Assembly: GCA_964589145.1 (NCBI GenBank)
Contig: CAZPSL010000129.1
Location: 1-43,072, forward strand
Source: an uncultured Anaerolineales bacterium
Lineage (GTDB): Bacteria > Chloroflexota > Anaerolineae > Anaerolineales > UBA11858
Length of the DNA stretch: 43,072 nucleotides
Direction of reading: 5' to 3'
The translations under genes and the position numbers were made by a program. Under the pieces are notes generated by a model. The model was given only the letters and a program-made list of their open reading frames with translations. It ran no database searches and had not been told where the DNA came from. Positions 20,619 to 38,531 of the stretch are shown piece after piece (the first letter of the stretch is position 1; every line of letters begins with the position of its first letter).

Positions 20619-20764
20619 CGCGAAAATCCGTAAACAAGGCGAATATCACGAATTTCTGTTTTTCATTCGTGGCATTCATGCCATTCGTGGATGGAAATGC
20701 AGGTGAAGGGTAAAATGCTGCCACGCTCTGGGGCACCACCCGCAAACCGCAACGACAAAACGAC

Positions 20765-21931: not shown

Positions 21932-22437
21932 AGGCCGCGATCATCATCGCCGCGGATGAGCGGGAGGGAATCGGCTACCGGGGGCGCATCCCCTGGCACC
22001 TGCCCGCTGATTTGCGGCGATTCAAGACCCTGACGATGGGACATCATCTCATCATGGGACGCCGAACCTTTGAGAGCATCGGCCGCCCGCTGCCGGGGCG
22101 CACCACGATTGTGCTCTCCCAACGGACGGACTACGCGGCGGCGGGCTGCCTGACCGCTCCCTCCCTGGCGGCTGCGCTGGATTTGGCACAATCCCGCGGG
22201 GAGACGGAGGTTTTCATTTGCGGGGGAGCGGCGGTTTATCGGGATGCCCTGAGGGTTGCGGATGCCCTCCATTTGACGCGCGTCCACGCGGAATTTCAGG
22301 CGGATACGCGTTTTCCGGGGGTTGATCCGGCCCGATGGGTGCTGCGCTCCGCCGAATTTCACCCGGCGGATGCGGAGAATCCGTATCCGTTCACCTTCTT
22401 CGTGTATGAAAGTTCCGGGAAAGGCGGTGCGGATTGA
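21928..22437 (+). CDS. folA: Dihydrofolate reductase
   Basis: The GTG at 21928 overlaps the larC stop (GTGA). The 169-aa product has IIAADEREGIGYRGRIPWHLPADLRRFKTLTMGHHLIMGRRTFESIGRPLPGRTTIVLS, which parallels classical DHFR motifs (PW.LP.D...FK..T....IMGR.T.ESIGRPLPGR). Confidence 0.85.
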   Translation: MKAAIIIAADEREGIGYRGRIPWHLPADLRRFKTLTMGHHLIMGRRTFESIGRPLPGRTTIVLSQRTDYAAAGCLTAPSLAAALDLAQSRGETEVFICGGAAVYRDALRVADALHLTRVHAEFQADTRFPGVDPARWVLRSAEFHPADAENPYPFTFFVYESSGKGGAD

Positions 22438-22578: not shown

Positions 22579-22608
22579 TTGACGTCCGCGCGGCTTATGC
22601 AGTATAAT
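22579..22608 (+). promoter_or_regulatory. Sigma-70-like promoter candidate for the signalling cassette
   Basis: TTGACG (22579-22584), an 18-nt spacer, then TATAAT (22603-22608). It lies 39 nt upstream of the ATG at 22647, in an AT-richer gap. Confidence 0.5.
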
Positions 22609-22646: not shown

Positions 22647-23468
22647 ATGGCCTTAAAAGGTAACCTGCGCGATTTTACAATCACCCAATTGCTCAACCTG
22701 ATTAACCTTGCCCGTAAAACCGGCACGCTAATTATCGAAGGGCCAAACGATACTGCCTGGGTGTCTTTCAGAGAAGGGAAATTAGCCTACGCAAAAATGG
22801 GGAAAGAGGATAACAGTTTATCCACAATCCTTTACCGAGCAAAGAAAATTTCGCAGGCACAATACAAAATGATCCGAGCCAGAGCAGGCAATATGAGCGA
22901 CAAGGAATTAGGCCTGTTGCTGATTAATGCGAATTACATCACCCAGGAAGATATTCTCACCAGTCTGCAAACCGAGTATATTGGCGTTGTTCACCGGCTG
23001 TTTACCTGGGTGGAGGGATTGTTTCGCTTTGAAAACGGGATTCTTCCCCCGGATGATAAAATCACTCTGCGGATCAGCCTTGAGAACATCATCATCGAAG
23101 GTACGCGGCGACTGAGAGAATGGGAACAACTCCAGGATGAGATTCCCAGTCTGGAAATTGCCCTCAAGTTTACCGACCGCCCCGGCACCAATCTGCGCAA
23201 TGTCAATTTGAGCGTGGAAGAATGGCGGGTGGTTTCGTATATCAACCCGAAGAATTCCATCCGCCGGATTGCCAATACGACCAAAATGAACGATCTGGAA
23301 ATCCGCCGCATTGTATATGGACTGCTTCAGGCCGGTTTGGTGGAGATGGTACGGGTAGAGGGCGCTCCCGTACCCAAGCGCGGAAAGATTGCCGGCGTTA
23401 CTACAACCGACCCCGAAGAACAGAAATCGCTGGTCAACCGGCTTATTAACCGCATCCGTTCGATTTAG
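22647..23468 (+). CDS. DUF4388 domain protein
   Basis: 273-aa ORF. The N-terminus LKGNLRDFTITQLLNLINLARKTGTLIIEG...WVSFREGKLAYA matches the DUF4388 pattern (G.L.DF.L.DLLQ.L....KTG.L) as I recall it. Confidence 0.7.
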   Translation: MALKGNLRDFTITQLLNLINLARKTGTLIIEGPNDTAWVSFREGKLAYAKMGKEDNSLSTILYRAKKISQAQYKMIRARAGNMSDKELGLLLINANYITQEDILTSLQTEYIGVVHRLFTWVEGLFRFENGILPPDDKITLRISLENIIIEGTRRLREWEQLQDEIPSLEIALKFTDRPGTNLRNVNLSVEEWRVVSYINPKNSIRRIANTTKMNDLEIRRIVYGLLQAGLVEMVRVEGAPVPKRGKIAGVTTTDPEEQKSLVNRLINRIRSI

Positions 23469-23578
23469 AGCCTATCCGAAAAAATCCCTATATCTTCGGA
23501 CAGACACTTAACTAATTCCCTGCGAATTCATTCCGATTTATTTTCGGAGAAATCCAAATTCCCTGAGGATATGGCATT

Positions 23579-24118
23579 ATGCAAACAGTAAAAATGGTAA
23601 TCACCGGCCCCTTCAACTCTGGCAAGACTGAGTTTATTCAGACGGTCAGTGAAATTGACGTGGTAGCAACCGAGCGTCAGATCACATCCGAGGCTGAAAA
23701 AATCAAAGACACCACCACGGTGGCAATGGATTTTGGACGCATCACCGTCGATGAGGACCTGGTTCTCTACTTGTTTGGGACACCGGGGCAAAAACGCTTT
23801 GATTTCATGTGGGAAATTCTCTCCGAAGGGATGCTGGGCTTCATTGTCATGGTAGACAGCACCCGTCCGGAAACCTTCCGCGAAGCACGCAGCATTCTCG
23901 AAACCTTCCGGGCATACGCGCCAACTCCGTATGTGGTTGCAGCCAACAAGCAAGACCTGGAAGATGCCTGGGATATTGACGATATGCGTATTGCCCTGCG
24001 TCTCGACCCGAAATTGAAGTTTCTGCCCTGCATCGCCACCGACAAGGATTCCGTCAAAAATGTTTTGCTGGAACTGCTTTACAGCATTCTCGCCGAAATG
24101 GAAGCCGCCACATCGTGA
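23579..24118 (+). CDS. Small Ras-like GTPase of the conservon CvnD / MglA-related type
   Basis: 179-aa ORF. The P-loop is GPFNSGKT, the G3 motif is LYLFGTPGQ and the G4 motif is NKQD. The block TTTVAMDFGRITVDEDLVLYLFGTPGQKRFDFMW closely resembles actinobacterial CvnD-type ATP/GTP-binding proteins, from memory. Confidence 0.8.
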   Translation: MQTVKMVITGPFNSGKTEFIQTVSEIDVVATERQITSEAEKIKDTTTVAMDFGRITVDEDLVLYLFGTPGQKRFDFMWEILSEGMLGFIVMVDSTRPETFREARSILETFRAYAPTPYVVAANKQDLEDAWDIDDMRIALRLDPKLKFLPCIATDKDSVKNVLLELLYSILAEMEAATS

Positions 24119-24173
24119 CGCCGGCAACTCACAGCACTGCCTGCCAACCGCTATTTTCTAAAATTGCATTGTC

Positions 24174-24974
24174 GTGTCCTCAATTACCACCGACCAGGGA
24201 ATCGTTCATTACGAAGTCTACGGAAAGGGTCGCCCTGTAATCCTTCTGCATGGCTGGCTCGGCTCTTGGGGACTTTGGCAAGATACGATGGCCTATCTTG
24301 GCCGTTATTACCGGACATACGCGCTGGATTTTTGGGGGTTTGGTGAATCAGGGAAAAAACAGCCCACGTTTGCTGTACAAGATTTTGTCAGCATGGTTGA
24401 CCAATTTATGGAACGTCTGGGGATCATCCGCGCCCCGCTGGTCGGGCACAGCATGGGCGGGACGGTCAGCCTGCTGACCACACTGCAATACCCCGGCCGG
24501 GTAAGCAAAGTGGTGGTGATCGGGTCGCCCATTGTCGGCTCATCACTGGCCCTGCTGCTCAAACTGGCCGGTTACAGTTGGATTGCATCGCTGGTTTTTC
24601 ACACCATGTGGGGGCTGCGAGTCGGATTGCGCGTCAGTGCCCCTGCCATCTCCAAAAATCCTGAGTTCTACGGGATGATCGAGCGGGACCTCTCGCGGAC
24701 CACACTGGAATCTTTCTTTCTCAGCATCGCGTCCTTGCGCAAAACCGACCTTCGCCCCCTGCTACACGAAATCACCATCCCCACAATGGGGATGTACGGC
24801 GATAAAGATGTAATTGTCAACCCCAAACAACGGAATATCCTCAAAGCCGGCGTGCCACACGCACAAATTGCCCGCTTCCGAAATGCAGGGCATTTTATTA
24901 TGCTGGATAATCCCGAGGCCTTTCAGGAAACGCTCAAAAATTTCCTGGATCACAGCAGAATTCCCCTCCCATGA
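24174..24974 (+). CDS. Alpha/beta-fold hydrolase (intact GHSMG nucleophile elbow)
   Basis: 266-aa ORF with a GTG start. It has an HGW oxyanion region (ILLHGWLGSW), GHSMGG with the Ser codon at 24450-24452, an acid candidate GDKDVIV and a His in NAGHFIM. It is a paralogue of 36528-37316. Confidence 0.8.
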   Translation: MSSITTDQGIVHYEVYGKGRPVILLHGWLGSWGLWQDTMAYLGRYYRTYALDFWGFGESGKKQPTFAVQDFVSMVDQFMERLGIIRAPLVGHSMGGTVSLLTTLQYPGRVSKVVVIGSPIVGSSLALLLKLAGYSWIASLVFHTMWGLRVGLRVSAPAISKNPEFYGMIERDLSRTTLESFFLSIASLRKTDLRPLLHEITIPTMGMYGDKDVIVNPKQRNILKAGVPHAQIARFRNAGHFIMLDNPEAFQETLKNFLDHSRIPLP

Positions 24975-25600
24975 AAGCAGAACAAACCTGTAACTATTTT
25001 TACCCCAACAAAATGGGGCGAATTATTCTGCTGGCAATGGAGGAGATTTTAGGGAAGAACGGCATCAATGCGGTTTTGAACCACATCCACTTAACCAAGT
25101 GGATCAACAATTACCCGCCTAACAACCTGGATGCAGCCTTCCCGTTTACAGATTTAAGTCATATCCAAGTCGGGCTGGAGGAAATTTACGGGCCGCGCGG
25201 CGGGCAGGGGTTGGCTATGCGCATCGGGCAGGCAAGTTTCAAGTATGGGTTGCGCGAGTTTGGCCCAATGCTCGGCATCACCGATATCAACTTCCGGCTG
25301 CTTCCCCTGCCAACCAAGTTAAGCAAAGGGGCAGCCGTTTTTGCCAGCACCTTCAACAATTTCACAGACCAGCGAGTGCGCATTGAAGAAACCCCTAATG
25401 AAATACGCTGGCACATCGAGCGATGCCCGGTCTGCTGGGGTCGCCACACCGAACGCCCCAGTTGCAACCTTGCCGTAGGCATCCTGCAAGAGGCCCTTTA
25501 CTGGCTCAGCAACGGCAAATATTTCAACGTTCAGGAAACCGCATGCATTGCACAAGGCGACCCGGCCTGCACGATCGTCATTGAAAAAATTCCGGAATAA
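24971..25600 (+). CDS. V4R (4-vinyl reductase-like) small-molecule-binding domain protein
   Basis: 209-aa ORF whose ATG overlaps the upstream stop (ATGA). The C-terminal pattern RCPVCWGR...SCNLAVGILQEALYWLSNGKYFNVQETACIAQGDPACTIVI fits the Cys-rich V4R signature as I recall it. Confidence 0.6.
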   Translation: MKAEQTCNYFYPNKMGRIILLAMEEILGKNGINAVLNHIHLTKWINNYPPNNLDAAFPFTDLSHIQVGLEEIYGPRGGQGLAMRIGQASFKYGLREFGPMLGITDINFRLLPLPTKLSKGAAVFASTFNNFTDQRVRIEETPNEIRWHIERCPVCWGRHTERPSCNLAVGILQEALYWLSNGKYFNVQETACIAQGDPACTIVIEKIPE

Positions 25601-25708
25601 TCCGAACCGCAGCAGGAAATCTCACCACCAGGCCACCGCAGCATTTCGGTAACACCTCCGAAAAACACCTGCAAAACAGGCAACTGGTGACCACTCCGCA
25701 CTGACGCT

Positions 25709-27004
25709 ATGCTCAAAATCATTCTTTACGAGCCAAAACATATTTACCCCTTCAACGAACCGGCGCGGGACCTGCGTTTGCAAAACAAGCAACTCTGGCT
25801 GATTCAACGCGACGTTCTGGCACCTTATGCCGAAAAAGAACTGGAGATCTACCCAGGGCACAATCTTCCCGATATTCGCGAGGAGTGCATCGTTTTCCGC
25901 AACAATTTGTATTTTGACGAACCTTACATCGAGGCCTTCCTCACAGAAGCACGCAAGCGAAAAATCCCCAGCCGAGCGGCTTTTTCAATCCAGGATCCGG
26001 CTTTTCGGGAACACGCGTTACCCCTCTCTTCCTCCTACGTTCGAAAACCCGGCAAAACCCCGGAAGAGGACATTTACCTGGCCGATTTGTGGTACTACCC
26101 CTACGGCATCGAACCTGACGCCGAGCCATTGGTAATTGACCTGCTTTCGCGGGAGGCAGGCTACTACCATGTTCCGACCTACATGGCAACCGAGCAAGGC
26201 GACCTGGTTTTTCAGGTACCGCTGCGCAGCCTGATCGCCATCGATTCCTGGGTACACATCTTCATCACGGATGTCGTCTTCGGGCTGTTCTCGCGCGGCG
26301 CGCGCTTTGAAGACCGCCTGGAGAAGAACCCATTTTTCAAATTACAGGTACTGGCGCGGGCAATGTACGAGGGCAAGCAAGTGCTGGAATGTTCGGAGGT
26401 CGTGCGTATTGGGCGCAACTGCGTAATTGACCCCTCCGCCGTCATCCACGGGCCAACCACCATCGGAGACAACGTAACCATCGGAGCCGGTGCAGTTATC
26501 GAGAACTGCATCATTGGCGATAACTGCAATATCTCCCAAGGCTGTCAGTTGATGCTCTCCGTCGTCGGAGACGGAGCATTTTTACCCTTCCGCGCCTCCC
26601 TGTTTATGACAACCTTCATGGATAACAGCATGGTTGCCCAAAATACCTGCCTGCAAATGTGCGTGGTTGGGCGCAATACCTTCATCGGCGCAGGATCAAC
26701 GTTCACAGATTTCAACCTGCTCCCCGCCCGCCTGAAAGCCATTGACGGAAACGGAAATCTCTCAGATGCCAACCGCGAGGTTCTGGGAGGCTGCGTCGGG
26801 CACAATTGCCGCATCGGGTCAGGGATGGTCATCTTCCCCGCCCGCACCATCGAATCTGATGTCGTCCTGTTCGCTTCTCCCGAACGCCGGGTGATCACGA
26901 AAGATATCCGCTACGAAGACAGCGATCACCACAAACTTCGATTCTCTCATCTGCACCAGCGACTCCACCCCCGGCCAGGCGAAGCGGGAAACAACACCTG
27001 GTAA
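25709..27004 (+). CDS. Degenerate sugar-nucleotidyltransferase-like N-domain fused to a left-handed beta-helix (hexapeptide repeat) domain
   Basis: 431-aa ORF. The N-terminus MLKIILYEPKHIYPFNEPARDLRLQNKQLW resembles the glycine-loop-less NTP_transf_4-type fold. The C-terminal half has hexapeptide-like runs (IGRNCVIDPSAVIHGPTTIGDNVTIGAGAVIENCIIGDNCNISQGCQL...). Confidence 0.55.
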   Translation: MLKIILYEPKHIYPFNEPARDLRLQNKQLWLIQRDVLAPYAEKELEIYPGHNLPDIREECIVFRNNLYFDEPYIEAFLTEARKRKIPSRAAFSIQDPAFREHALPLSSSYVRKPGKTPEEDIYLADLWYYPYGIEPDAEPLVIDLLSREAGYYHVPTYMATEQGDLVFQVPLRSLIAIDSWVHIFITDVVFGLFSRGARFEDRLEKNPFFKLQVLARAMYEGKQVLECSEVVRIGRNCVIDPSAVIHGPTTIGDNVTIGAGAVIENCIIGDNCNISQGCQLMLSVVGDGAFLPFRASLFMTTFMDNSMVAQNTCLQMCVVGRNTFIGAGSTFTDFNLLPARLKAIDGNGNLSDANREVLGGCVGHNCRIGSGMVIFPARTIESDVVLFASPERRVITKDIRYEDSDHHKLRFSHLHQRLHPRPGEAGNNTW

Positions 27005-27007
27005 ATC

Positions 27008-28087
27008 GTGGATTCATTCGCCTTCATCATTCACCCCATTGACCCAAAACGAGATGTCAGCCGCAAATATCCTCTGCTGGGTCATTATCTCAGTGAGAGC
27101 ATTATCAATTTCGGCTCGACCTTCTTCCCCCCCGTTCTGCTCTCGGAAGTAGAGGGCATTACATCGCAAGCCACCGGGAAAGTACTTAAAGGCTGGTTAA
27201 TTGCATGTCCCCTTACTGCCGCACGTATGTTAGAATTAAATGAACGCATCGCCTATTACAAAATCATCCAAACCGGGCGTTTAGCCGAACGGCTCGGTGC
27301 GGACATTTTGGGGCTGGGTGCATTCACATCCGTTATTGGAGATGGCGGAATCACCATCGCCAATGCACTGGAAATCCCGGTTACCACGGGAGATGCGTAT
27401 ACCATCGCGGTTGCGGTACAGGCCGTCCGCGAGGCTGCCGCGTTAATGGAGATTGATTTTGCCCAAACCTCAGCCGCTATTGTCGGAGCCACCGGAGCCA
27501 TCGGGCGGGTTTGCGCTCAGTTGATGTGCCGTGAAGTTCCTGAACTGCACCTGCTTGGACGGGATAAAACCCGCCTGGAAGCGTTACGGGAAACCTTGCA
27601 GCCCCAAAGCCGCGCCCGCCTGGTAACCCACACCGACTTGCAGCAACTTCGGCAAAGCAAAGTTATCCTGACCGTATCCAGCGCATTGGATACCATTATC
27701 GAACCGGAGTTTTTACAGCCGGGCAGCGTAATTTGCGATGTCGCCCGCCCGCGGGACGTGGCCGCCAGCCTGGTTGACCAGCGCCGCGATGTGCTAGTTA
27801 TTGACGGCGGCATCGTTGATGTCCCCGGCCCGGTAAACTTCAACTTCGATTTTGGCTTCCCGCCCGGCAAAGCCTACGCCTGCATGGCCGAAACAATCGC
27901 CCTCGCCCTGGAAGGCCGGTTTGAAGATTACACCATCGGCAAAAACATTTCACTCCAGCGCGTAGAGGAAATTTCAAAAATTGCTCAAAAACACGGGTTC
28001 AAACTAAGCGGCTTCCGTTCTTTTGAACGCCCGGTTACCCTAGAGCAAATTGAAAAAATCAAAAACAATGCTAAACTACATTTATAA
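27008..28087 (+). CDS. Long-chain acyl-ACP reductase (cyanobacterial AAR)-like NAD(P)-dependent reductase
   Basis: 359-aa ORF with a GTG start 3 nt after the upstream stop. It is collinear with my recollection of Synechococcus AAR. [18 protein letters not shown] parallels [34 protein letters not shown] parallels [54 protein letters not shown] parallels [55 protein letters not shown] parallels FACFAEAMLLEFEG, which contains the catalytic Cys. Confidence 0.7.
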   Translation: [359 protein letters not shown]

Positions 28088-28144
28088 GGCAGGGCAATCC
28101 CCCTCCGCCCTGTACCCCCGTACTCCTAAACCTGGGAGGTTCCC

Positions 28145-29032
28145 ATGAGCAAAGCCCGATTACTAATTGTTGAAGACGACTTCGATATCTCCAACATGCT
28201 GCGCATCTACTTTACCGGGCAAGATTACGATGTGGATATCGCGCCCCGCGGCTCAGACGCGCTGGAGAAAACCCGCCAGCAACTCCCCCATCTGATTGTT
28301 CTGGACATTATGCTGCCAGATATTGACGGGTATGAGGTCTGCCGCCGCCTGCGGACGCAAACCCGCACCCGTCATATCCCGGTCATCTTTCTGACCCAGA
28401 AAGATGAGCGCAGCGACAAACTCCAGGGACTGGAATTGGGAGCAGATGACTACATCACCAAACCCTTTGATATCGAAGAACTCAAACTGCGCGTCCAGAA
28501 CGCCATTGCCCGTGCCGAGCGCGAAAGCCTCACCGACCCCCGCTCCGGGCTGCCCTCCGGGCGGCTGATTGAGGAGGAACTGCGCCGCGTCATCCGCACC
28601 GACGGCTGGGCACTGATGGACATCCGCATCAACCACTTCGGCCATTTCAAGGACGAATACGGCTTCGTGGCCGGCGACGACGTACTGCGTTCCACTGCCA
28701 TGACCATCAACGAAACCGTGGACGAATTCGGCACAACGGACGATTTCATCGGACACGCCGGCGAAGACAACTTCATCGTCATCACCACAGAAGAACACGC
28801 ACCGCAAATTCGCGCCGAAATAAAAAGGAGATTCGCCGAAGAAGTACCCACCCACTACAACTTCATGGACCGTGCCCAGGGATACATCACCATCACCAAC
28901 AAAGACGGTGAAACCGAAAACGTTCCACTGATGACCATCGGCATCGGCGTTGTCAGCCCCTCCGAATACCAGTTTGCAGATATTCGCGAAATCACCGAAC
29001 TGGCCGCCGAAGTCCGCCGAAAAGACGAGTAA
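28145..29032 (+). CDS. Response regulator: receiver domain plus degenerate GGDEF domain
   Basis: 295-aa ORF with an RBS gggagg. The REC domain has LLIVEDD...VLDIMLPDIDG...ITKPF. The C-terminal GGDEF-like fold has DPRSGLPSGR...FGHFKDEYGFVAGDDVL, but the signature reads GHAGEDNF instead of R.GGDEF. Confidence 0.8.
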   Translation: MSKARLLIVEDDFDISNMLRIYFTGQDYDVDIAPRGSDALEKTRQQLPHLIVLDIMLPDIDGYEVCRRLRTQTRTRHIPVIFLTQKDERSDKLQGLELGADDYITKPFDIEELKLRVQNAIARAERESLTDPRSGLPSGRLIEEELRRVIRTDGWALMDIRINHFGHFKDEYGFVAGDDVLRSTAMTINETVDEFGTTDDFIGHAGEDNFIVITTEEHAPQIRAEIKRRFAEEVPTHYNFMDRAQGYITITNKDGETENVPLMTIGIGVVSPSEYQFADIREITELAAEVRRKDE

Positions 29033-29067
29033 TTTTTGAAGTATCAGGAAACCAAAGGTAACGCGGC

Positions 29068-32000
29068 ATGTCTACAGTAGGATTGCTTCCCCTGGGGATT
29101 GTAATCACGCTCGTCGGGTTAACTTTTTTCCTGTTGACCTATTTCATCTTGCGCATCGTGCCAAAAATCCGCCCAACCGCCTCCACCCAAAAGAATCCCC
29201 CCATAATGCCAGACCTGCCTGCGCACAGCGATGCCATTTTAATGGTGCGCTATGGAGGGCAAGTTTCCTACCTCAACGAAGAGGCCCGCGAGTGGTTCAA
29301 CCTTTGGGAGGAGGAACCCAACCTGGAACGCATGGCACGCCAAACACGCCCATCGGAAACATTTTTGGGGCTTTGTGCCGCCGAAGGGCAGGGGCGATTC
29401 GCCATCAACGGCAAGTGGGTTAATGGCATTTCCTACACCCTGCCGGAGCAAGAGCACGGCTCCATACTGGTTTCCATGCACCTGCCGGAAACTGCCAGCC
29501 AACAAAAAGAAACCAACGGAATATCCAGCCAGGTGCTGGCAACCCTGTCCAAATTCAGCCACACCATGGTCGCCAACCTGAATTTGGAGACAATTCTGCA
29601 CTCAATTCTCAGCAGCGCAGAACAACTGGTACCTGCCGATTTTGCAGAAATCACCATCTGGGATCCAGAAAAGCAATGGCTGATCCCCTACCGCTTCTCC
29701 GGCATCCCCGGCATTGATTTGCACATAGAAAAAACCAGCGACCGCTATCCGCTCGGAGAAGGATACTCCGGCCATGTAGCAAAAACCCGCGAACCCCTGC
29801 TGATTTCAGATGTGGATGCAGAAATAAATTTGCGGCCGCTAATTGACATCAAAAAATATCCTTTCAAATCATACCTGGGCGCGCCCCTGCTGGTTGGGAA
29901 CAACCTGGCAGGCACGATTGAATTGATGTCTCAGGTTACCAACTCATTCTCCGAAAACGACCAGGAAATACTCAGCCTGCTCAGCAAACAAGCGGCCATT
30001 ATCCTGCACAACGCCCTGCTCTATCAAAAAGAACAACGCCGCTCCGAAGAACTGAACCGCCTCGCCAACCTGACACAGGATATCGGATCCATTCGCAACC
30101 CTCAGGATTTATACAAGCACCTGATAGAAGGCATTCTCCCCCTCATCAACGTCGAAATTATCGGCTTTCTGATCTACAACGAAAACACGAGGCAGTTAGA
30201 AGCCCAGCCGCCCTTTGTCGGTGTACCGCCCCAATTTGTGGATCTGTATAAAGTAACCATCCCAACCGGAAGCCCCGCAGAACATATCTGGCACCGGCAT
30301 GAAATTATTATCGCAGACAATGCCCTCGAAAACCCCTACCTGATTGATTTAGGGCTGGATCATCCAGCACGGGCAGCCGGCATCCGCGATACGCTCCTGA
30401 TTCCGCTTAGTTCCAGCGGACGGCCGCTGGGCTACTTGCAGGTCGCCAACAAAAAAGACCACAACAATTTCAGCCAAAGCGACATCCGCATCCTTTCCAT
30501 CATCGCCGGGCAGGCCGCACCAATCATCGAAAATGCCGACCTGATACGCCAATCGGTACACCGGGCATTGCGGGCAGAATCCCTGCGGCGCATTGCCAGC
30601 CTTTCCGGCTCATCCGCCAGCCTGGATGAAATCTTCAAATACACAATGGTCGAACTGGCGCGCCTGTTCAAAGCCGAGTACGCCGCAATCCTCCTGCTGG
30701 ATGAAAACATTGGCGAGTTGCGTGTTCACGCAGAATCAGTATACGGCCTCAGCCCCGAAAAAGCCGCGGCTTTGGGGCGGATTAACGCCAACGACCCCGA
30801 ATTCCGCAGGTCCGTCACACAAAACAAAGCGCCGCGCCTGATCAACAACGTTGATATTGAGACTGACATCCCCCCGATTTACCACCCGATGATTCGGCAG
30901 TTGACCGTAAAAGCCGTCCTGGCTGTGCCGGTAATCATCCGTGACCGTGGCATCGGAGAGATCATCCTGGCATCACCGGAGCCGGATGCCTTCACCCGCA
31001 GCGATATGCAACTCGCGGTGACGGTTGCCAGCCAACTATCGGTAGCAATCGAGCGCGCCTCCCTGGCCTCCCAAACCGACGTAGACCTGCGCCGCCGCGT
31101 AGAGCAGTTAACCGCGCTCACCCGCATCAGCCGCGAACTCAACACATCTGTCAACCTGGAACACCTGCTCCAGCGAGTTTACGAAGAATCCTTGCAGGCC
31201 ACCGGCGCCGATTGCGGCACAATTATGCTGTTTGAAGATTTATCCAGCACGCAGGATGAAACCCAACCCCTCACCGTGCTAATGTACTTTGGAGAAGAAC
31301 CGGGAGAATCTCCCCACCCGCTGGAACGCGAAACCGCCAAAACGGCCAGCCCGGTTCTCATTGCCGATTACAACCGAATCTCTCAGGACGAACCCACCGA
31401 AACACGCCTTCCACCCCATGCGGGCGTCCGCGCCTCCCTGATTGTCCCCATTGGATATCAGGAAGAAGTCGCCGGGCTGATACACCTGCACAGCCATACC
31501 CCCGAAAATTTCGGCACATCAGAACTGGAGATTGCACAAGCCCTGGCCGTCCAGGCCGCAATTGCCATCGGGAACGCCCAGCGCTACCAAGAACAAGTCC
31601 GCCGCACGGAACTGCTCAACCGCCAGGTAGAAACACTCTCCAATATGTTCGAGGTTGCCAAAAACCTGAACCTCGGACGCCCCATCGAAGAAACCCTGGA
31701 GGATATTGCCTACGCCATCCAATCCTCCACCCCCTTTGATGTAGTACTGTTCAGTGTTTACGACCAGAGCGACCAAATGCTGCACAGGATCACCAGCGCC
31801 GGGATTCCCCTGGCAAAAATGGAAGAGATCAAGTCCATTCCACAAACCTGGGAAAGCATCCAGCCATTAATGCAAGAACACCTGCGGTTTGGGCGCTCTT
31901 ACTACATTCCCTACGAGCAGCGGCCTGATACACCGGGCACTTCGCACATTGTAACCATTGACGAAAACGCCCCCGAAATCAGGCCAGACGACAACCGCTG

Positions 32001-35000
32001 GCACCCCAGAGATTTACTGATCATCCCGCTGACAACCGCCGACGGCCGCCCGCTGGGGCTGGTTAGCGTAGACAGCCCCAGAGACGGCCTGCGCCCCGAC
32101 ACCACCACAATTGAAACGCTGGAAATCTTCGCTGGGCAAGCCTCACTGGCAATCGAAAGCCAGCAGCAACTTCAGGGGCTGGAAACACAAATTCAGGCCC
32201 TCACCGAGGAACTGGAAGAAGCCCAAAAAGCCCAAAAACTACTCCCAGAAATTATCGCACAAAACCGCCAAAACAGCGCCGCACTGGAACGGCTGGAACA
32301 ATACATCCAGCGGGTTACGGCGGGGCTGATGATGATTGAAACAGCAAATCGGCAACCCGATAAGATTGCAGCGCTGACTGCACTGGGAAACGAATTGCGC
32401 ACCCGGTTCGGGCTGGATATCGCCCTGGCAACGGCAACCGCCCCTGATGGGGAACAAACCTTTCACACCTTTGGCGAAATTTCCGAAAAAGTAAATCCAG
32501 AGGCACTTTTCGGGCAGCGCAATCCGCTCCGCTACAGCCTGCAATCTGGGGAAATCCTGGTTGCAAACAACCTGGCCGAAAACGAAAACTGGCAGCAATC
32601 GCCGCTGCTGGCTGCCCTGGAAGCCCAGGCATTTATCGCACTGCCGGTTCTTTCCACAGGGAAAGTTGAAGGTGCCATTCTGGGCATCAGCAAGCAGGTT
32701 CTGCCGCCCTTCCACGAAGAAGACCACCGGTTCTTCGAACTGCTGGTGCGGCAAATCGGCGCAGCAGTTACCAACCTGAACCTGCTTGCCGAAACCAGGC
32801 AGCGGCTGCAAGAAGTAAACATCCTGCTAGATTTTAGCCAGAAACTGGGCGGGCTGCAACCTGCGCGCATTCTGGAAACACTGCTCGACAACGCCTTTGA
32901 AGTCGTGCAGCAGACAAACACCGGCATCGTTTTACTTTGGGATATGGACAGCGACACCCTGCGCCCGAAATCCACCCGGGGCTACGCCGACCCGGATGCC
33001 ATTCTGCGGGTCGCCTTCAGCCCAACAGCAGGGGTTCCCGGAGAGGTCTTCACACAGGGGAAGGCGGTAAACCTTGGAGAGGTGGATTTCACACAAGATT
33101 ACAGCCTGGTGCTGGACAACCTGCTCAATTACCGGGATGCCACAGGCGGAAAACTGCCGCTCTCCGCACTGATGGTGCCCATCCGTGCCGGAGAAAAATC
33201 CCTGGGAGTCATCGTTCTGGAAAACTTCGAGGCCAGCGCCGCCTTTGACGCGGACGACCAGGCGATGATCGAATCAATCGCCCGCCAGACCGCGCTAACG
33301 CTGGAAAACGTGCGTCTATACCAGTCATCCGAAGAGCGTGCCGCCCAACTGCAAGCCCTGAGCGAAGTTGCCGCCACAATCACATCCCGCCTGGAACCGG
33401 AGGCACTGATCGACTCCCTGCTCGACTCCCTGGCACCTGTAGTCCCTTACAACACCGGTACACTCTGGCTGCGAGAAAAAGATACACTCACCATTCAGTC
33501 GGCGCGCGGCTTTGAAAACAGTGATGACCTGGTAGGCATCACAACGCAGGTAGAAGACAGCCATCTGTTCTACGAAATGATTCAAACCCGCCAGCCGATT
33601 GCCGTGCAAGATGTACGCAACGATAACCGCTTCCCCGACACAGCCATCGAACGCCTTTCCTGGCTGGGCGTTCCGCTGCTCGCGAAGGATGAGGTAATCG
33701 GGGTGATTGCACTTGAAAAAACAGAGCCTGAATTTTACACCCCGGAGTTGATCCGCTCGGCAACCACCTTTGCCAGCCAGGCCGCCGTCGCCCTGGAAAA
33801 TGCCGTTTTGTACCAGCAAAGTTTGCAGCGCACCAAAGAACTGGACAAACGCAGCCAGCGGCTCACTCTGATCAACCGATTCTCCAACCGGATTAGCCGC
33901 TCGCTGGATTTCGACACCCTGCTCACCGTCACCATCGAGGAATTGCAGCAGGCCATCCCCGGAACAACCATCTCGGTAGTCATGCTGGAAGACGGCAACC
34001 ACGTTATGCTGCGCGCAGAAACGCTGCCGCAGGATGAGGAAAACAGCCCGCCGCAAGCCCTATCCTATGCACCGGTTTTTGATTACCTGCAAGAATCGCG
34101 CGGGACATTCAGTTCCCAAGACGTCAGCCGGGAAACCCAATTGGAACCCATTCGGGAACACCTTGCACGGCACAACACCCAGGCACTACTGATACTGCCG
34201 CTTTCTGTAGGAGATGAATTCTTTGGCTTCACCCTGGTTCACTCACCCGAACAGCGGCGTTTCACGCCGGAAGAGGTTGAACTGGGGCGTATTTTGACCA
34301 ACCAGGCAGCAGTCTCCATACAAAATGCAACCCTGTTTGTTGAAACCCGCCGTCTGACCGAGGAGTTAGAGCAGCGCGTCGCCGAACGCACCGAAGAACT
34401 CGGCCGCGAGCACCGCCGCCTACAGACCTTGCTGCGCATTATGCAGGAACTCTCGGCCAGCCTCGACCTGGATCATGTGCTCAACCGCACGCTGGCATTG
34501 CTCAATGAAACCACCGGAGCAGAGCAAAGCACTATCCTGCTGGTACGACCCGATGAGAGCACTTTTTACTATCGGGCATCTCTGGGCTACACCGATCCGC
34601 CGCCAATCGGCGGGCAGCCCTCGTCCATCCCGCTGGGAGAGGGGCTGGCAGGATGGATTGTCAAGCACGGCGAAGGCGTATTGATTGACAATTTGCAGGA
34701 CGACCCGCGCTGGGTTACCCCACCGAATGGAAAAACCGAACATCGCAGCGTACTTGCCGCCCCGCTGCTGGTTGGCGCAGAAGCCCTGGGCGCAATGCTG
34801 CTCTACAGCCGCACACCGGGCGCATTTTCACCCGAACAGCGCGAACTGGTACAAGCCGCCGCCAACCAAATTGCCATTGCCATCAACAACAACGAACTGT
34901 TTACCCTGATCCGCGAACAGGCCGAGAGTTTGGGCAGCATGTTACGTCAACAGCAGGTGGAAGCCAGCCGTTCGCGGGCTATTCTGGAAGCAGTCGCAGA

Positions 35001-36087
35001 TGGTGTGCTGGTTACAGATAGCGAAAACGTTATTACACTGTTCAACGAATCGGCACAGCAAATTCTTGACCTGGAACGCGACGCCGTAGTCGGCCACTCG
35101 CTCGATACTTTCACTGGGCTCTTCGGCAGCGCAGCACACGATTGGATGGAGACAATCCAGCAATGGACGCAAGACCCCGTATCCTTCGAAGATGGCGCCA
35201 CCTATGCCGAACGGATTACCCTCGATAACAAGCGGGTCGTTTCCATCCACCTCGCGCCGGTAAGCATGCAAAACGAATTTCTGGGCACAGTCTCGATTTT
35301 CCGGGATATTACCCATCAAGTTGAAGTTGACCGGCTCAAATCCGAATTTGTCGCGACGGTCAGTCACGAACTGCGAACACCCATGACCTCCATCAAGGGG
35401 TACGTAGAAGTCTTGCTGATGGGAGCCGCCGGTCCGCTCAACGACCAGCAAACCTCTTTCCTCAAGGTTGTGCAAACCAACACCGAACGGCTTAACATTC
35501 TGGTCAATGACCTGCTGGATGTTTCCCGTATCGAAGCCGGAAAAGTCACACTCACCATTCAAATGCTGGACTTAAACGAGATTGCCAGTGAAGTTGTACA
35601 AGAACAGCAGCGGCAGGCCGAGGAAGATGACAAACCGATGACAATCAACATTGAGGTGGAACCCGACTTGCCGCACGTTCCCGGCGACCCGGAACGCATC
35701 CACCAGATTTTCGCCAACCTGGTCAGCAACGCTTACCATTACACCCCTGCCGGAGGCCAAATTGACATCCGCCTGCACCAGGTTGACGATGAAGTTCAGA
35801 TCGACGTTGCAGACAACGGCATCGGTATTTCCCCGGAAGAGAAAAAACGCATTTTTGAACGTTTCTACCGGGGAGAAGACCCGCTGGTGCTGGCAACCCC
35901 CGGCAACGGGCTGGGGCTTTCCATCACCAAACAACTGATCGAGATGCACCACGGACGCATCTGGATGGAAAGCGATGGAATTCCTGGCGCGGGGTCAGTC
36001 TTTCATGTTGCCCTGCCTCTACAAACCGCCAATCAGGAATCCGACGCCCCCGAATCCCAGGATTCCAGCACAGACATCCTGTATTAG
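29068..36087 (+). CDS. Membrane-anchored sensor histidine kinase with ten tandem GAF-like domains, a PAS domain, HisKA and HATPase_c (2339 aa)
   Basis: The N-terminus has a hydrophobic segment (LLPLGIVITLVGLTFFLLTYFILRIV). The end-of-GAF helix motif (A.Q.A.AI.NA.L) recurs ten times. It is followed by a PAS-like block (ILEAVADGVLVTDSENVITLFNESAQQIL). The H-box is VSHELRTPMTSIKGY, with the His codon at 35365-35367. The N-box is FANLVSNAYHYT, G1 is DNGIGI and G2 is GNGLGL. Confidence 0.9.
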   Translation: MSTVGLLPLGIVITLVGLTFFLLTYFILRIVPKIRPTASTQKNPPIMPDLPAHSDAILMVRYGGQVSYLNEEAREWFNLWEEEPNLERMARQTRPSETFLGLCAAEGQGRFAINGKWVNGISYTLPEQEHGSILVSMHLPETASQQKETNGISSQVLATLSKFSHTMVANLNLETILHSILSSAEQLVPADFAEITIWDPEKQWLIPYRFSGIPGIDLHIEKTSDRYPLGEGYSGHVAKTREPLLISDVDAEINLRPLIDIKKYPFKSYLGAPLLVGNNLAGTIELMSQVTNSFSENDQEILSLLSKQAAIILHNALLYQKEQRRSEELNRLANLTQDIGSIRNPQDLYKHLIEGILPLINVEIIGFLIYNENTRQLEAQPPFVGVPPQFVDLYKVTIPTGSPAEHIWHRHEIIIADNALENPYLIDLGLDHPARAAGIRDTLLIPLSSSGRPLGYLQVANKKDHNNFSQSDIRILSIIAGQAAPIIENADLIRQSVHRALRAESLRRIASLSGSSASLDEIFKYTMVELARLFKAEYAAILLLDENIGELRVHAESVYGLSPEKAAALGRINANDPEFRRSVTQNKAPRLINNVDIETDIPPIYHPMIRQLTVKAVLAVPVIIRDRGIGEIILASPEPDAFTRSDMQLAVTVASQLSVAIERASLASQTDVDLRRRVEQLTALTRISRELNTSVNLEHLLQRVYEESLQATGADCGTIMLFEDLSSTQDETQPLTVLMYFGEEPGESPHPLERETAKTASPVLIADYNRISQDEPTETRLPPHAGVRASLIVPIGYQEEVAGLIHLHSHTPENFGTSELEIAQALAVQAAIAIGNAQRYQEQVRRTELLNRQVETLSNMFEVAKNLNLGRPIEETLEDIAYAIQSSTPFDVVLFSVYDQSDQMLHRITSAGIPLAKMEEIKSIPQTWESIQPLMQEHLRFGRSYYIPYEQRPDTPGTSHIVTIDENAPEIRPDDNRWHPRDLLIIPLTTADGRPLGLVSVDSPRDGLRPDTTTIETLEIFAGQASLAIESQQQLQGLETQIQALTEELEEAQKAQKLLPEIIAQNRQNSAALERLEQYIQRVTAGLMMIETANRQPDKIAALTALGNELRTRFGLDIALATATAPDGEQTFHTFGEISEKVNPEALFGQRNPLRYSLQSGEILVANNLAENENWQQSPLLAALEAQAFIALPVLSTGKVEGAILGISKQVLPPFHEEDHRFFELLVRQIGAAVTNLNLLAETRQRLQEVNILLDFSQKLGGLQPARILETLLDNAFEVVQQTNTGIVLLWDMDSDTLRPKSTRGYADPDAILRVAFSPTAGVPGEVFTQGKAVNLGEVDFTQDYSLVLDNLLNYRDATGGKLPLSALMVPIRAGEKSLGVIVLENFEASAAFDADDQAMIESIARQTALTLENVRLYQSSEERAAQLQALSEVAATITSRLEPEALIDSLLDSLAPVVPYNTGTLWLREKDTLTIQSARGFENSDDLVGITTQVEDSHLFYEMIQTRQPIAVQDVRNDNRFPDTAIERLSWLGVPLLAKDEVIGVIALEKTEPEFYTPELIRSATTFASQAAVALENAVLYQQSLQRTKELDKRSQRLTLINRFSNRISRSLDFDTLLTVTIEELQQAIPGTTISVVMLEDGNHVMLRAETLPQDEENSPPQALSYAPVFDYLQESRGTFSSQDVSRETQLEPIREHLARHNTQALLILPLSVGDEFFGFTLVHSPEQRRFTPEEVELGRILTNQAAVSIQNATLFVETRRLTEELEQRVAERTEELGREHRRLQTLLRIMQELSASLDLDHVLNRTLALLNETTGAEQSTILLVRPDESTFYYRASLGYTDPPPIGGQPSSIPLGEGLAGWIVKHGEGVLIDNLQDDPRWVTPPNGKTEHRSVLAAPLLVGAEALGAMLLYSRTPGAFSPEQRELVQAAANQIAIAINNNELFTLIREQAESLGSMLRQQQVEASRSRAILEAVADGVLVTDSENVITLFNESAQQILDLERDAVVGHSLDTFTGLFGSAAHDWMETIQQWTQDPVSFEDGATYAERITLDNKRVVSIHLAPVSMQNEFLGTVSIFRDITHQVEVDRLKSEFVATVSHELRTPMTSIKGYVEVLLMGAAGPLNDQQTSFLKVVQTNTERLNILVNDLLDVSRIEAGKVTLTIQMLDLNEIASEVVQEQQRQAEEDDKPMTINIEVEPDLPHVPGDPERIHQIFANLVSNAYHYTPAGGQIDIRLHQVDDEVQIDVADNGIGISPEEKKRIFERFYRGEDPLVLATPGNGLGLSITKQLIEMHHGRIWMESDGIPGAGSVFHVALPLQTANQESDAPESQDSSTDILY

Positions 36088-36096
36088 AGGTAACTT

Positions 36097-36480
36097 ATGG
36101 CAAAAATCCTAATTGCAGAAGATGAACCCGACATTCGCAATCTGATCACATTCACGCTGCGATTCGCCGGGCACGAGGTAATTGACACCCCCAACGGTTA
36201 TGAAGCCTACCAGAAAGCCCAGGAAATGGCTGCACAGGGCGACCTGCCTGATCTGATTATGATGGACGTGCGGATGCCGCGCATGACCGGTTACGAAGCC
36301 TGCGCACAAATGAAAAAAATCGATTCTCTCAAAGATGTACCGGTCGCGTTTCTCTCTGCCAAAGGACAGGAATCCGAAATTCAAACCGGGCTGGACCTAG
36401 GCGCAGTGGCATACATCATCAAACCATTTGCCCCCGATCAGTTAACCGCTAAAGTAGATGAGTTAATTGGGAACAAATAA
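36097..36480 (+). CDS. Single-domain CheY-like response regulator
   Basis: 127-aa ORF 9 nt after the kinase stop. Motifs are ILIAEDE, MMDVRMPRMTG and IIKPF. Confidence 0.85.
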   Translation: MAKILIAEDEPDIRNLITFTLRFAGHEVIDTPNGYEAYQKAQEMAAQGDLPDLIMMDVRMPRMTGYEACAQMKKIDSLKDVPVAFLSAKGQESEIQTGLDLGAVAYIIKPFAPDQLTAKVDELIGNK

Positions 36481-36527
36481 TACCCGCCAGCAGCAATTCG
36501 GCTGCTGCTGGCTGAACCTCACCACCG

Positions 36528-37316
36528 ATGAGCGCTATCATTCTTCAGGATGAAATCGTCCATTACGAAGTACTCGGACGCGGCCGCCCGTTGATCTTCA
36601 TCCACGGGTGGGTTGGGTCGTGGCGATACTGGATTCCATCCATGCAAGCCGCCTCGACCAATTTCCGCGCCTACGCGCTTGACCTGTGGGGATTCGGCGA
36701 CACCGCCAAAGAGCCCAGCAAATACCTGATTGAACAACAAACCACCCTGCTCGACGACTTCCTCTTCGAAATGGGGATCGGGAAAATCGCCATTGCCGGG
36801 CACGGGCTGGGCGCAATTGTAGCCCTGATGTTCGCCAAAGAAAACCCCAAATTCGTAGACCGGGTGATGGCAATTTGCCTGCCATTCAACAGCAACGCCA
36901 TCAACCCCCGCCTGAAACAAGCCCAGCCCGCAGAACTGGCTGACTGGCTGCTGGGCGATACCCCGGACGCCCAGGCCGCCCGCGTAGAAGCCGCCAAAGC
37001 CGACCAGGATGCAATTCTACGCTCCATTCACAACCTGCAAAATATCGAAATCACCCAATTGGCTGCCAGCATCAGAATCCCCTCCCTGCTGGTTTTCGGA
37101 CAAAATGACCCGGCCGTCAGTCCGGCAGATAATGAAAACCTCGCCAATTTGCCGGAACATGTTCACTACATCACCTTTGACAATTCCGGCCACTTTCCAA
37201 TGATTGACGAGGTCAACAAATTCAATCGCCTGATGATCGACTTTCTCAACCTGCCCTCTGGAGAAAGCCCCCGCCAACTGCAACTCAAAGAAGAGTGGAA
37301 ACGGCGCATCCGCTAA
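36528..37316 (+). CDS. Alpha/beta-fold protein, paralogue of 24174-24974, lacking the nucleophile Ser (GHGLG)
   Basis: 262-aa ORF. IVHYEVLGRGRPLIFIHGWVGSW...YALDLWGFGDTAK parallels IVHYEVYGKGRPVILLHGWLGSW...YALDFWGFGESGK. The nucleophile-elbow position reads GHGLGA, with Gly codon ggg at 36804-36806. The Asp and His candidates (GQNDPAV, NSGHFPM) are retained. Confidence 0.8.
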   Translation: MSAIILQDEIVHYEVLGRGRPLIFIHGWVGSWRYWIPSMQAASTNFRAYALDLWGFGDTAKEPSKYLIEQQTTLLDDFLFEMGIGKIAIAGHGLGAIVALMFAKENPKFVDRVMAICLPFNSNAINPRLKQAQPAELADWLLGDTPDAQAARVEAAKADQDAILRSIHNLQNIEITQLAASIRIPSLLVFGQNDPAVSPADNENLANLPEHVHYITFDNSGHFPMIDEVNKFNRLMIDFLNLPSGESPRQLQLKEEWKRRIR

Positions 37317-37409: not shown

Positions 37410-38204
37410 ATGCGTCAATACCTCGATCTCATACAGCACATCCTGGAACATGGCATCCAAAAATCAGACCGTACCGGCACCGGCACGGTCTCTGTTTTTG
37501 GGCATCAGATGCGTTTCGACCTTAGTGAGGGCTTCCCCCTCCTGACCACAAAAAAACTGCACATCAAATCCATCATCTACGAACTGCTGTGGTTTTTGCG
37601 CGGCGAGACCAACATACGCTATTTGCAGGAACACGGCGTGCGCATCTGGAACGAGTGGGCAGACGAAGATGGAGAACTCGGCCCCGTGTACGGCGCACAA
37701 TGGCGGGCATGGCGCGCCCCTGACGGACATACCATCGACCAGATTTCCGAAGTAATCCGCTCCATTCGGGAGAATCCCGACTCGCGGCGGCACATCGTCA
37801 GCGCGTGGAACGTGGGAGAACTCAACCAGATGAAACTGCCGCCTTGCCACATCCTGTTTCAATTCTACGTTGCCGGGGGAAAACTGTCCTGCCAACTCTA
37901 CCAGCGCTCCGCCGACGTTTTTTTGGGAGTGCCCTTCAATATCGCCTCCTACGCCCTGCTCACCATGATGACAGCGCAAGTTTGCGGGCTGCAACCCGGC
38001 GAATTTATCCACACCCTGGGAGATGCACACCTCTACCGCAACCACCTGCAACAAGCCCGCCTGCAACTAAGCCGCGAACCGTATCCGCTCCCCGAAATGC
38101 GCCTCAACCCGAACGTACACGACATCTTTGCCTTCCGTTACCAGGATTTTGAACTGCGCAACTATCAGGCCCACCCCCACATCAAAGCCCCCATCTCGGT
38201 GTGA
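37410..38204 (+). CDS. thyA: Thymidylate synthase (ThyA type)
   Basis: 264-aa [46 protein letters not shown] and [11 protein letters not shown], including the catalytic Cys context, are classic ThyA. Confidence 0.95.
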
Positions 38205-38513: not shown

Positions 38514-38531
38514 GAGTTTCTCCTTATTGTG

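Follow-up and report, generated by a model that had tools for sequence, protein, structure and literature searches.

A conserved ten-gene cassette of Anaerolineae that probably couples a two-component phosphorelay to a PATAN/GTPase switch

Positions 22647-37316 of contig CAZPSL010000129.1 from an uncultured Anaerolineales bacterium (the whole stretch analysed, 43,072 nt, is called the window below) are occupied by ten consecutive plus-strand genes, g1 to g10, whose order recurs in dozens of species-level genomes of Anaerolineae. From their content and arrangement we think it reasonably probable that they form one conserved signalling operon of this class, coupling a two-component phosphorelay to a PATAN/GTPase switch. 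The conserved core comprises a phosphorelay (the giant histidine kinase g8 with the receiver proteins g7 and g9), a GTPase switch (g2 with its PATAN neighbour g1) and three enzyme-fold proteins (g3, g5 and g10); g4, a V4R protein, and g6, a relative of acyl-acyl carrier protein (ACP) reductase (AAR), appear from their distribution to be ancestral, dispensable add-ons. A preliminary description of this DNA had counted eleven genes, although its own list held ten, as do the open reading frame listing and the translation; the eleventh plus-strand gene (37410-38204) is thyA and lies outside the range. The signalling backbone that it recognized, in which a kinase is joined by two receivers and a GTPase switch, is evident. 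The features of the cassette are as follows.

22579-22608, plus strand: candidate sigma-70-type promoter, TTGACG-18-TATAAT, 11 of 12 positions matching, 38 nt upstream of g1
22647-23468, plus strand: g1, PATAN (PatA_N/DUF4388) protein (Pfam PF14332), putative MarR-like winged helix at the C-terminus, no REC domain
23579-24118, plus strand: g2, small Ras-superfamily GTPase (Pfam ATP_bind_1/Ras/Arf), probably of the MglA Group 5 type
24174-24974, plus strand: g3, alpha/beta hydrolase with an intact Ser-Asp-His triad (GHSMGG, GDKD, GHF; Pfam Abhydrolase_1, E 1.6e-29)
24971-25600, plus strand: g4, V4R-domain protein (Pfam PF02830), optional
25709-27004, plus strand: g5, nucleotidyltransferase-like N-terminal domain followed by a left-handed beta-helix (LbH; Pfam Hexapep/LbH_EIF2B/GMPPB_C, residues 229-291)
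27008-28087, plus strand: g6, NAD(P)-dependent acyl-thioester reductase of the AAR/PigE-N-terminal type (NCBIfam, PDB), optional
28145-29032, plus strand: g7, REC domain with a degenerate GGDEF domain reading GEDNF (Pfam Response_reg, E 2.7e-29; GGDEF, E 2.3e-11)
29068-36087, plus strand: g8, 2339-aa sensor histidine kinase (Pfam: ten GAF_2 stretches, PAS at residues 1968-2088, HisKA at 2091-2158, HATPase_c at 2206-2319)
36097-36480, plus strand: g9, single-domain CheY-like receiver (Pfam Response_reg, E 3.3e-26)
36486-36512, no strand assigned: 11-bp GC-rich inverted repeat between g9 and g10, not followed by a T-run on the plus strand
36528-37316, plus strand: g10, alpha/beta-fold protein with GHGLGA (Pfam Abhydrolase_1, E 1.4e-22)

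Conservation, spacing and expression signals

The genomes were scanned at one genome per GTDB species with g5 as query, and the loci recovered are numbered from L001 onward. At least 572 genomic stretches encode a g5 relative; the best 80 are all from Anaerolineae, and their carriers include Anaerolinea, Levilinea, Bellilinea, Thermanaerothrix, Ornatilinea and Longilinea as well as many metagenome-assembled genomes. More than 120 database relatives of g5 share 72-92 % identity with it, and their sources are all Chloroflexota/Anaerolineae. When the ten window proteins were compared with the loci by tblastn, the order g1<g2<g3<g5 was present in 58 of the 62 loci having enough upstream DNA and g5<g7<g8 in 68 of the 72 having enough downstream DNA, the overall order kept being g1-g2-g3-(g4)-g5-(g6)-g7-g8-g9-g10. 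The flanks vary: upstream of g1 lie GAF-GGDEF and DAGK genes in L001 and an aldehyde ferredoxin oxidoreductase gene in L002, and the DNA shared with the closest relative (L089, proteins 85-89 % identical) begins only about 53 nt upstream of g1. Since the same gene order is found in dozens of genomes between unrelated flanks, the neighbourhood is more than chance, and the earlier treatment of these genes as one conserved unit is borne out. The order extends to distant relatives, with L090 carrying the complete ten-gene set, V4R and AAR-like genes included, although its g5 is only 49 % identical, and L085 carrying the core without g4 and g6 at 46 % identity in g5.

Median identity to the window proteins is highest for the GTPase g2 (84 %), followed by g7 (74 %), g5 (73 %), g1 (69 %), g6 (68 %), g3 (67 %), g9 (63 %), g10 (58 %), g8 (43 %) and g4 (40 %). 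The GTPase motifs of g2, the REC aspartates of g7 and g9, the g3 serine and the g6 cysteine are conserved in all orthologues examined, which points to purifying selection, and the cassette ranks among the most conserved non-housekeeping gene blocks of the Anaerolineae. Few bacteria of anaerobic digesters, sediments and hot-spring mats are as abundant and as poorly understood as these organisms, and to our knowledge almost nothing has been learned of their cell biology or signalling. A GTPase about 84 % identical across the class, together with a near-consensus promoter conserved in front of the cassette, suggests that the system probably controls something central to these filamentous organisms.

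Not every lineage keeps the block in one piece. Only g1-g5 are present in three Thermanaerothrix/Anaerolinea-type loci (L015, L021 and L042), and only g5-g10 in four others (L057, L058, L069 and L092); because g5 is retained with either half wherever the cassette splits, we refer to it as the hinge gene. Two apparent copies in Levilinea saccharolytica (L024 and L025; NZ_LGCM01000042.1) mirror each other about the exact midpoint, 60886, of a 121772-bp contig; this is a palindromic assembly artefact and the copies were counted once.

The genes are closely packed. The ATGA overlap of g3 and g4 at 24971-24974, the 3-nt gap between g5 and g6 at 27005-27007 and the 9-nt gap between the kinase and CheY genes, all noted in the preliminary description, are exact, and the remaining spacers in the window measure 110, 55, 108, 57, 35 and 47 nt. 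Across the loci three junctions were measured (g1-g2, g2-g3 and g9-g10), with median spacers of 9-24 nt. The 110-nt and 108-nt spacers gave no Rfam match to a riboswitch or small RNA at E-values up to 0.1.

The site at 22579-22608, previously singled out as a good promoter candidate, is the top sigma-70-like site between 21500 and 38800, and it is also conserved: in a scan with the pattern TTGACA-N16-18-TATAAT, 76 % of 62 orthologous loci have a site with 11 of 12 matches no more than 150 nt upstream of g1, as compared with 0.6 % of shuffled control sequences. No comparable enrichment was seen before the other cassette genes, the upstream distributions for g2, g3, g5, g7, g9 and g10 being close to background. 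This pattern is consistent with the block being driven mainly from one promoter, and the conservation of the g1 promoter is the strongest evidence for it short of transcript mapping.

As to termination, the preliminary description saw no internal terminator hairpin. One internal hairpin does exist, the 11-bp inverted repeat at 36486-36512, but no T-run follows it on the plus strand and the terminator scan flags it on the minus strand only, so that the statement holds for plus-strand terminators and not for hairpins as such; the repeat could be an RNA processing or stability element. The first convincing plus-strand terminator, a very strong one at 38531-38572 with a 19-bp stem and a T-run, follows thyA, opposite the end of a convergent LysM/M23 peptidase gene (38576-39658, minus strand), and may be where a transcript crossing thyA stops, one that possibly comes from the cassette. 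Farther downstream, at 39844-41241 on the minus strand, is a gene for the Rho termination factor; since the organism encodes Rho, Rho-dependent termination is available to it, and this bears on how the absence of intrinsic terminators inside the cassette is read.

The encoded proteins

All domain calls of the preliminary description (PatA_N/DUF4388, GTPase, hydrolases, V4R, hexapeptide, AAR-like, REC-GGDEF, ten-GAF kinase and CheY) were upheld by Pfam or NCBIfam together with structure searches, and the AAR-like, V4R and hydrolase assignments in particular stand under profile search.

The kinase g8 has one N-terminal hydrophobic segment in its translation and no extracytoplasmic domain; Pfam finds no HAMP domain in it, and there is no C-terminal LPxR. 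Its orthologues range from 1854 to 2988 aa and are sometimes split in two, into a GAF-only and a GAF-PAS-kinase protein (L090, 13532-14425 and 14525-21278; L001, 12242-19169); in L090 the REC-GGDEF gene and the kinase are separated by an inserted gene for an Rce1-like (CPBP) membrane protease. The phospho-acceptor aspartate is conserved in the REC domain of g7, and in g9 it lies in a [LM][LM]D[VI]RMP motif kept in 54 sequences. In g7 the GGDEF domain reads GEDNF in the window and GGDNF in most orthologues; it lacks the GG[DE]EF active site as well as the RxxD I-site, whose position reads TTDD.

The PATAN domain of g1 is assigned with 89.1 bits to PF14332 (cut-off 25) over residues 4-160. Pfam finds no Response_reg domain in g1, which thus departs from the PATAN-REC fusion of PatA-type regulators. 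Its C-terminus matches MarR (structure 7kua, residues 178-259) weakly in a search with an alignment profile (E 0.039), and the AlphaFold model has a beta-alpha-alpha-alpha-beta unit of the winged-helix kind at residues 172-235, where the predicted local distance difference test score (pLDDT) is 70-86; for the model as a whole it is 63.5.

The g2 protein contains the P-loop GPFNSGKT, the G3 motif GTPGQKRF and the G4 motif NKQD, and its G2 region reads KDTTTVAMDF; GTPGQ[KR]RF and NKQD are invariant in 68 of 68 orthologues. Its PDB relatives are Arf, MglA and Rab. Groups 2-5 of the MglA family are characterized by GTPGQ in G3 and by a Thr that replaces the Arg finger in G2 (PMC4316618), both of which g2 has. 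Group 5 genes often adjoin PATAN genes, and Table S2 of the same study lists Anaerolinea thermophila ANT_06780 as a Group 5 protein of 179 aa with an adjacent PATAN gene, together with PATAN>MglA pairs in Chloroflexus (Caur_0665), Roseiflexus (RoseRS_2140) and Herpetosiphon (PMC4316618). We infer membership of Group 5 for g2 from this listing, the length of ANT_06780 being equal to that of g2 and its neighbour likewise a PATAN gene. The g1-g2 pair is thus already catalogued (Wuichet and Sogaard-Andersen, 2014). Our literature searches found no description of the full cassette, or of the eight genes beyond g1-g2 as a unit, so that, as far as these searches reach, the earlier remark that no described system of this composition was known holds for the whole and not for its first pair.

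The alpha/beta-fold proteins g3 and g10 are paralogues with about 30 % identity. GHSMGG is present in 72 of 72 g3 sequences, and the Asp and His motifs are conserved as well. The preliminary description had noted that the second protein lacks the serine, and this proves to be general: g10 retains Asp and His, its nucleophile position is Gly in 30 of 30 sequences, and GHGLGA occurs in 25 of the 30. Because both the loss of the g10 serine and the degeneration of the g7 GGDEF domain are conserved, the two look like conserved pseudo-enzymes and not like decaying genes. The closest PDB relatives of g3 and g10 are generic esterases, epoxide hydrolases and MCP hydrolases; a specific kinship with RsbQ, D14 or KAI2 is not seen among them, and the parallel with RsbQ drawn in the preliminary description finds no specific support there.

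The V4R domain of g4 scores 44.7 bits (cut-off 31) over residues 148-205, and its PDB sequence matches to MJ1460 and PoxR are faint. The g6 product matches the NCBIfam models for PigE (E 1e-63) and for the AAR family AcACP_reductase (TIGR04058; E 1e-31) below their cut-offs (216 against 850 bits, and 110.4 bits against an equivalog cut-off of 449.7). In the PDB it matches PigE (4ppm, E 4e-38) and AAR (6jzq/6jzu, E 1.8e-25), the alignment with 6jzq running end to end over residues 11-332. All 39 of the sequences carry the catalytic cysteine motif [YF]ACMAET, and the protein has a Rossmann motif GATGAIG (GxxGxxG). Among 64 cassettes the V4R and AAR-like slots are both filled in 21, the V4R slot alone in 24, the AAR-like slot alone in 9 and neither in 10. 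Split or remnant genes lie in the g4 or g6 slot in six loci (L001, L004, L013, L018, L036 and L075), the V4R gene being split in L001. Since the distant L090 holds both genes, they appear to be ancestral and to have been lost repeatedly and independently.

The hinge protein g5 is assigned by profile in its C-terminal part only, with 60.9 bits to PF00132 Hexapep (cut-off 27) and matches to the LbH regions of GlmU, LpxD and LpxA in the PDB. Its N-terminal 225 residues have no profile match, and PF00483 was not found at E-values up to 10 even with the N-terminal half alone. The N-terminus reads MLKIILYEPKHIYPFNE, and the glycine-rich GxGxR(L) loop is absent. With the AlphaFold model (pLDDT 64) Foldseek returns proteins that combine a sugar-1-phosphate nucleotidylyltransferase with a beta-helix (ST0452, GMPPA/GMPPB and VTC1) at a probability of about 1 and a template modelling (TM) score of about 0.27. 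The earlier label of NTP-transferase-like/hexapeptide protein is therefore secure in its second half by profile and applies at the level of fold in its first, where the catalytic loop is missing. Identity is 70-76 % across the 80 loci; in the wider family there is no invariant His, and the conserved features include a PF dipeptide close to the N-terminus, a Cys where the helix begins and an Asp. It is possible, on this sequence evidence, that g5 is no conventional enzyme.

Distant g5 relatives (25-35 % identity) were examined in L083, L084, L086-L088 and L091. The relative in L083 adjoins an FHA-PATAN protein; a 228-aa protein of that locus was considered as a cassette homologue and matches none of the cassette hidden Markov models. 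Those in L086 and L088 adjoin Rossmann proteins, and the relative in L084 adjoins a thioester reductase of the short-chain dehydrogenase/reductase (SDR) family, a seven-transmembrane GAF kinase and a REC protein. These were rejected as AAR-like neighbours, the Rossmann proteins being AdoHcy-hydrolase-NAD-like and the L084 enzyme an SDR. In L087 (3385-8663) and L091 (3766-9771) the g5-like gene accompanies genes for a B12-binding radical SAM protein, a squalene-hopene-cyclase-like protein and a cupin, with an additional SDR gene in L087 only and a methyltransferase gene in L091; the recurring arrangement possibly represents an undescribed cluster for lipid or terpenoid modification. Taken over these mixed contexts, g5 relatives are linked to both signalling halves in some lineages and to apparent metabolism in others.

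A possible mode of action and its alternatives

If the cassette is a signalling operon, the membrane-anchored kinase g8 would read cytoplasmic small-molecule cues through its GAF/PAS array and phosphorylate g7 and g9. Because g7 and g9 lack DNA-binding output domains, they would work on the g1/g2 module through protein contacts, and the GTP/GDP state of g2 would set the output. The output might be a machine of the cell envelope or of pilus type, reached through PATAN, or else transcription by way of the g1 winged helix. For the enzyme-fold proteins two roles are conceivable: the processing of a hydrophobic or acyl metabolite by which the system is tuned or, because the neighbourhood encodes no MglB, that of the GTPase regulators otherwise missing.

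Several points weigh against this scheme. Co-transcription, phosphotransfer and coupling to the GTPase are all derived from gene order. The cassette splits in some lineages, so its halves can function unlinked or possibly independently. The metabolic surroundings in L087 and L091 suggest that g5 may be a real enzyme and the enzyme genes possibly the output. The g1 winged helix, one of the two suggested outputs, depends on the weak matches described above, and the models of g1 and g5 are both of low confidence, which makes their fold matches leads and not tests.

The preliminary description had proposed that the products of g3-g6 make, modify and present a lipid-derived molecule (an aldehyde, acyl compound or ester), which the GAF/PAS kinase senses, with the receivers and the GTPase as output. 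As a full account of the cassette we find this doubtful. Profile searches do confirm a bona fide thioester reductase of the AAR/PigE-N type in g6, with its catalytic Cys and GxxGxxG motif kept, as well as the V4R domain of g4 and the intact triad of g3; V4R domains bind hydrophobic ligands (PMC2253512), the acyl-ACP-dependent LpxA and LpxD are among the LbH relatives of g5, the distant g5 relatives of L084, L086 and L088 stand beside NAD(P)-dependent enzymes, and a g5-g6-g7-g8 block persists without g1-g4 in L057, L058 and L092. The proposal is nevertheless weakened by the repeated loss of g4 (absent from 19 of the 64 cassettes) and of g6 (absent from 34): each of the four possible combinations occurs, some loci hold decaying remnants, and the other genes remain in place. 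Being missing from so many otherwise intact cassettes, neither can be obligatory for making or presenting the signal. Furthermore, g5 lacks the nucleotidyltransferase loop and its wider family an invariant His, the hydrolases have no specific affinity to the receptor hydrolases RsbQ, D14 and KAI2, and Pfam finds among the cassette genes neither a ferritin-like aldehyde-deformylating oxygenase (ADO) nor an ACP partner.

Alternatively, g1, g5, g10 and, where present, g4 might provide GTPase-activating protein (GAP), guanine nucleotide exchange factor (GEF) or scaffold functions for g2, under control of the phosphorelay, which we regard as unlikely. It would account for the lack of a Roadblock domain, since none is encoded by the ten genes (Pfam) or within 10 kb upstream or downstream in the annotated loci L001, L002, L085 and L090, and it agrees with g10 and g7 being conserved pseudo-enzymes and with the strong conservation of g5 across the class in spite of its lack of catalytic signatures. 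In Foldseek the nine best PDB hits of the g1 model are without exception NPRL2/NPRL3 (Npr2/Npr3) chains from the GATOR1/SEACIT Rag-GAP complex, with E-values from 2e-4 to 4e-2 but TM scores of only 0.22-0.25 from a low-confidence model, and we take them as a lead and not as a result; literature searches found no publication that links PATAN to NPRL2/NPRL3. V4R is homologous to the TRAPP subunit Bet3/TRAPPC3 (PMC2253512, PMC10933270), and g5 has its architecture of nucleotidyltransferase and LbH domains in common with eIF2B epsilon/gamma and the regulatory subunit GMPPA. The NPRL2/NPRL3 hits of the g1 model hint at PATAN as a longin/Roadblock-like GTPase platform. In its most specific form, with a Roadblock GAP replaced by three folds of eukaryotic GAP/GEF complexes (NPRL2/NPRL3, TRAPP Bet3/TRAPPC3 and eIF2B epsilon/gamma) that are controlled by the phosphorelay, we consider the idea improbable; were it true, PATAN would be such a platform and the cassette a tractable prokaryotic model for the origin of these regulators. 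Against regulators of this kind, the resemblances are at fold level only and come from low-confidence models (pLDDT 64 and 63.5, TM 0.22-0.28), an orphan MglB is encoded elsewhere in Anaerolinea thermophila (Table S2 of PMC4316618), V4R is dispensable, and the retention of catalytic residues in g3 and g6 argues for real chemistry.

It is equally hard to favour a metabolic or cell-envelope-modification operon (acyl/ester chemistry) with its own regulators, in which the enzymes are the output and the PATAN/GTPase pair is merely a neighbour. Distant g5 relatives do occur in metabolic clusters without signalling genes (L087 and L091), g3 and g6 are catalytically intact by motif, and the winged helix of g1 could belong to a transcription factor. 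However, conservation is strongest in the GTPase and the regulators and not in the enzymes, neither response regulator has a DNA-binding output domain, and linkage of the PATAN and GTPase genes to g3-g5, seen in 58 of 62 loci, persists even in loci without the kinase half.

That the genes adjoin by chance, or belong to a mobile or defence island acquired recently, is highly improbable: the cassette in the window has a G+C content of 52-57 % as compared with 60-65 % upstream and sits between folA and thyA, yet its gene order is that of dozens of species-level genomes, no integrase or transposase is found among the Pfam calls on neighbouring genes, and PADLOC gave no meaningful hits. The G+C content of the g1-g7 stretch (22647-29032 in the window, and its orthologues) is more than 2 points below that of the upstream flank in 30 of 47 loci. 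This dip (mean 2.8 points) is general across genomes, and the cassette G+C follows that of each host (43-61 %), which suggests a compositional constraint and not recent transfer; a recent horizontal island was therefore rejected. An anti-phage defence system was rejected as well, the PADLOC output being two weak matches, both of them in the g7 REC domain.

Comparison with known systems and genomic surroundings

With the signalling operon as the preferred reading, the nearest described relatives are the PATAN-MglA Group 5 pairs (PMC4316618), in which PATAN likewise lies directly upstream of a 176-179-aa GTPase with GTPGQ in G3, Thr for Arg in G2 and NKxD in G4. Those of Chloroflexi are often without an adjacent MglB, as g1-g2 are here. 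The catalogue concerns the pair only, whereas here it heads a conserved probable operon with eight more genes.

The preliminary description had called the GTPase conservon-type or CvnD-like. Actinobacterial conservons (CvnA-D of Streptomyces and the mfp operon of mycobacteria) do combine a histidine kinase and an MglA-family GTPase in one conserved operon, and sometimes carry an associated enzyme or effector gene (P450 or MfpA; PMC4316618). The conservon GTPases, however, belong to Group 2 and have NxFD in G4 (PMC4316618) where g2 has NKQD. The cassette has no Roadblock (CvnB) or DUF742 (CvnC) gene (nor does an MglB or DUF742 gene lie within the 10 kb mentioned above), its kinase is without HAMP and LPxR, and it has two response regulators where conservons have none. 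On the G4 motif, the missing Roadblock and DUF742 genes and the presence of receivers, membership of the conservons is ruled out and the name does not apply.

The MglA/MglB/RomR systems of Myxococcus xanthus and Thermus are similar in linking a Ras-like switch to a phosphorelay through receivers that do not bind DNA. They differ in that g2 falls in the GTPGQ groups, without the intrinsic Arg finger of Group 1, in the lack of an MglB GAP nearby and in the gathering of the partners in one probable operon, these being dispersed in Myxococcus. With the cyanobacterial PatA, PixG and PixE the cassette has PATAN in common, and the Synechocystis PATAN contacts the pilus motor proteins PilB1 and PilC; g1 differs from the PatA type in having no REC domain and a C-terminus that resembles a MarR-like winged helix, the receivers here being separate proteins.

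For the enzyme-fold proteins the comparisons are looser. Although g6 aligns with cyanobacterial AAR and the N-terminal domain of PigE from end to end, keeping the catalytic Cys and the NAD(P) motif, it is far below the equivalog cut-offs, has neither an ADO partner nor an aminotransferase domain, and is optional. RsbQ-RsbP of Bacillus and the plant proteins D14, KAI2 and GID1 offer an analogy as alpha/beta-fold proteins paired with a signalling partner, with g10 as a conserved non-catalytic member that would resemble GID1; as g3 and g10 have no specific sequence affinity to these proteins, the analogy is functional only. The GlmU/GMPP/eIF2B-type proteins share with g5 the fold only, its catalytic loop being absent.

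The cassette would extend the short list of prokaryotic systems that join a Ras-like GTPase to two-component proteins (conservons and MglA/Frz), with partners that are wholly different and of which two are conserved pseudo-enzymes. Its clonable components bear on the regulation of MglA Group 5 proteins without MglB, on the role of PATAN outside cyanobacteria and on the cues of giant multi-GAF kinases.

The cassette lies exactly between folA (dihydrofolate reductase, 21937-22437, plus strand) and thyA (thymidylate synthase, plus strand), genes that are often adjacent in bacteria. In L005 a dihydrofolate reductase gene lies just downstream of g10, and no other locus has folA/thyA flanks within reach; as this pair of flanks is seen in no other locus, the block may have been inserted or rearranged in the window. 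Upstream of folA, at 19001-21931 on the plus strand, three genes match a PP-loop/NAD-synthase protein (LarE-like), AIR carboxylase (LarB-like) and a nickel insertion protein (LarC), and together look like a set for biosynthesis of the nickel-pincer cofactor.

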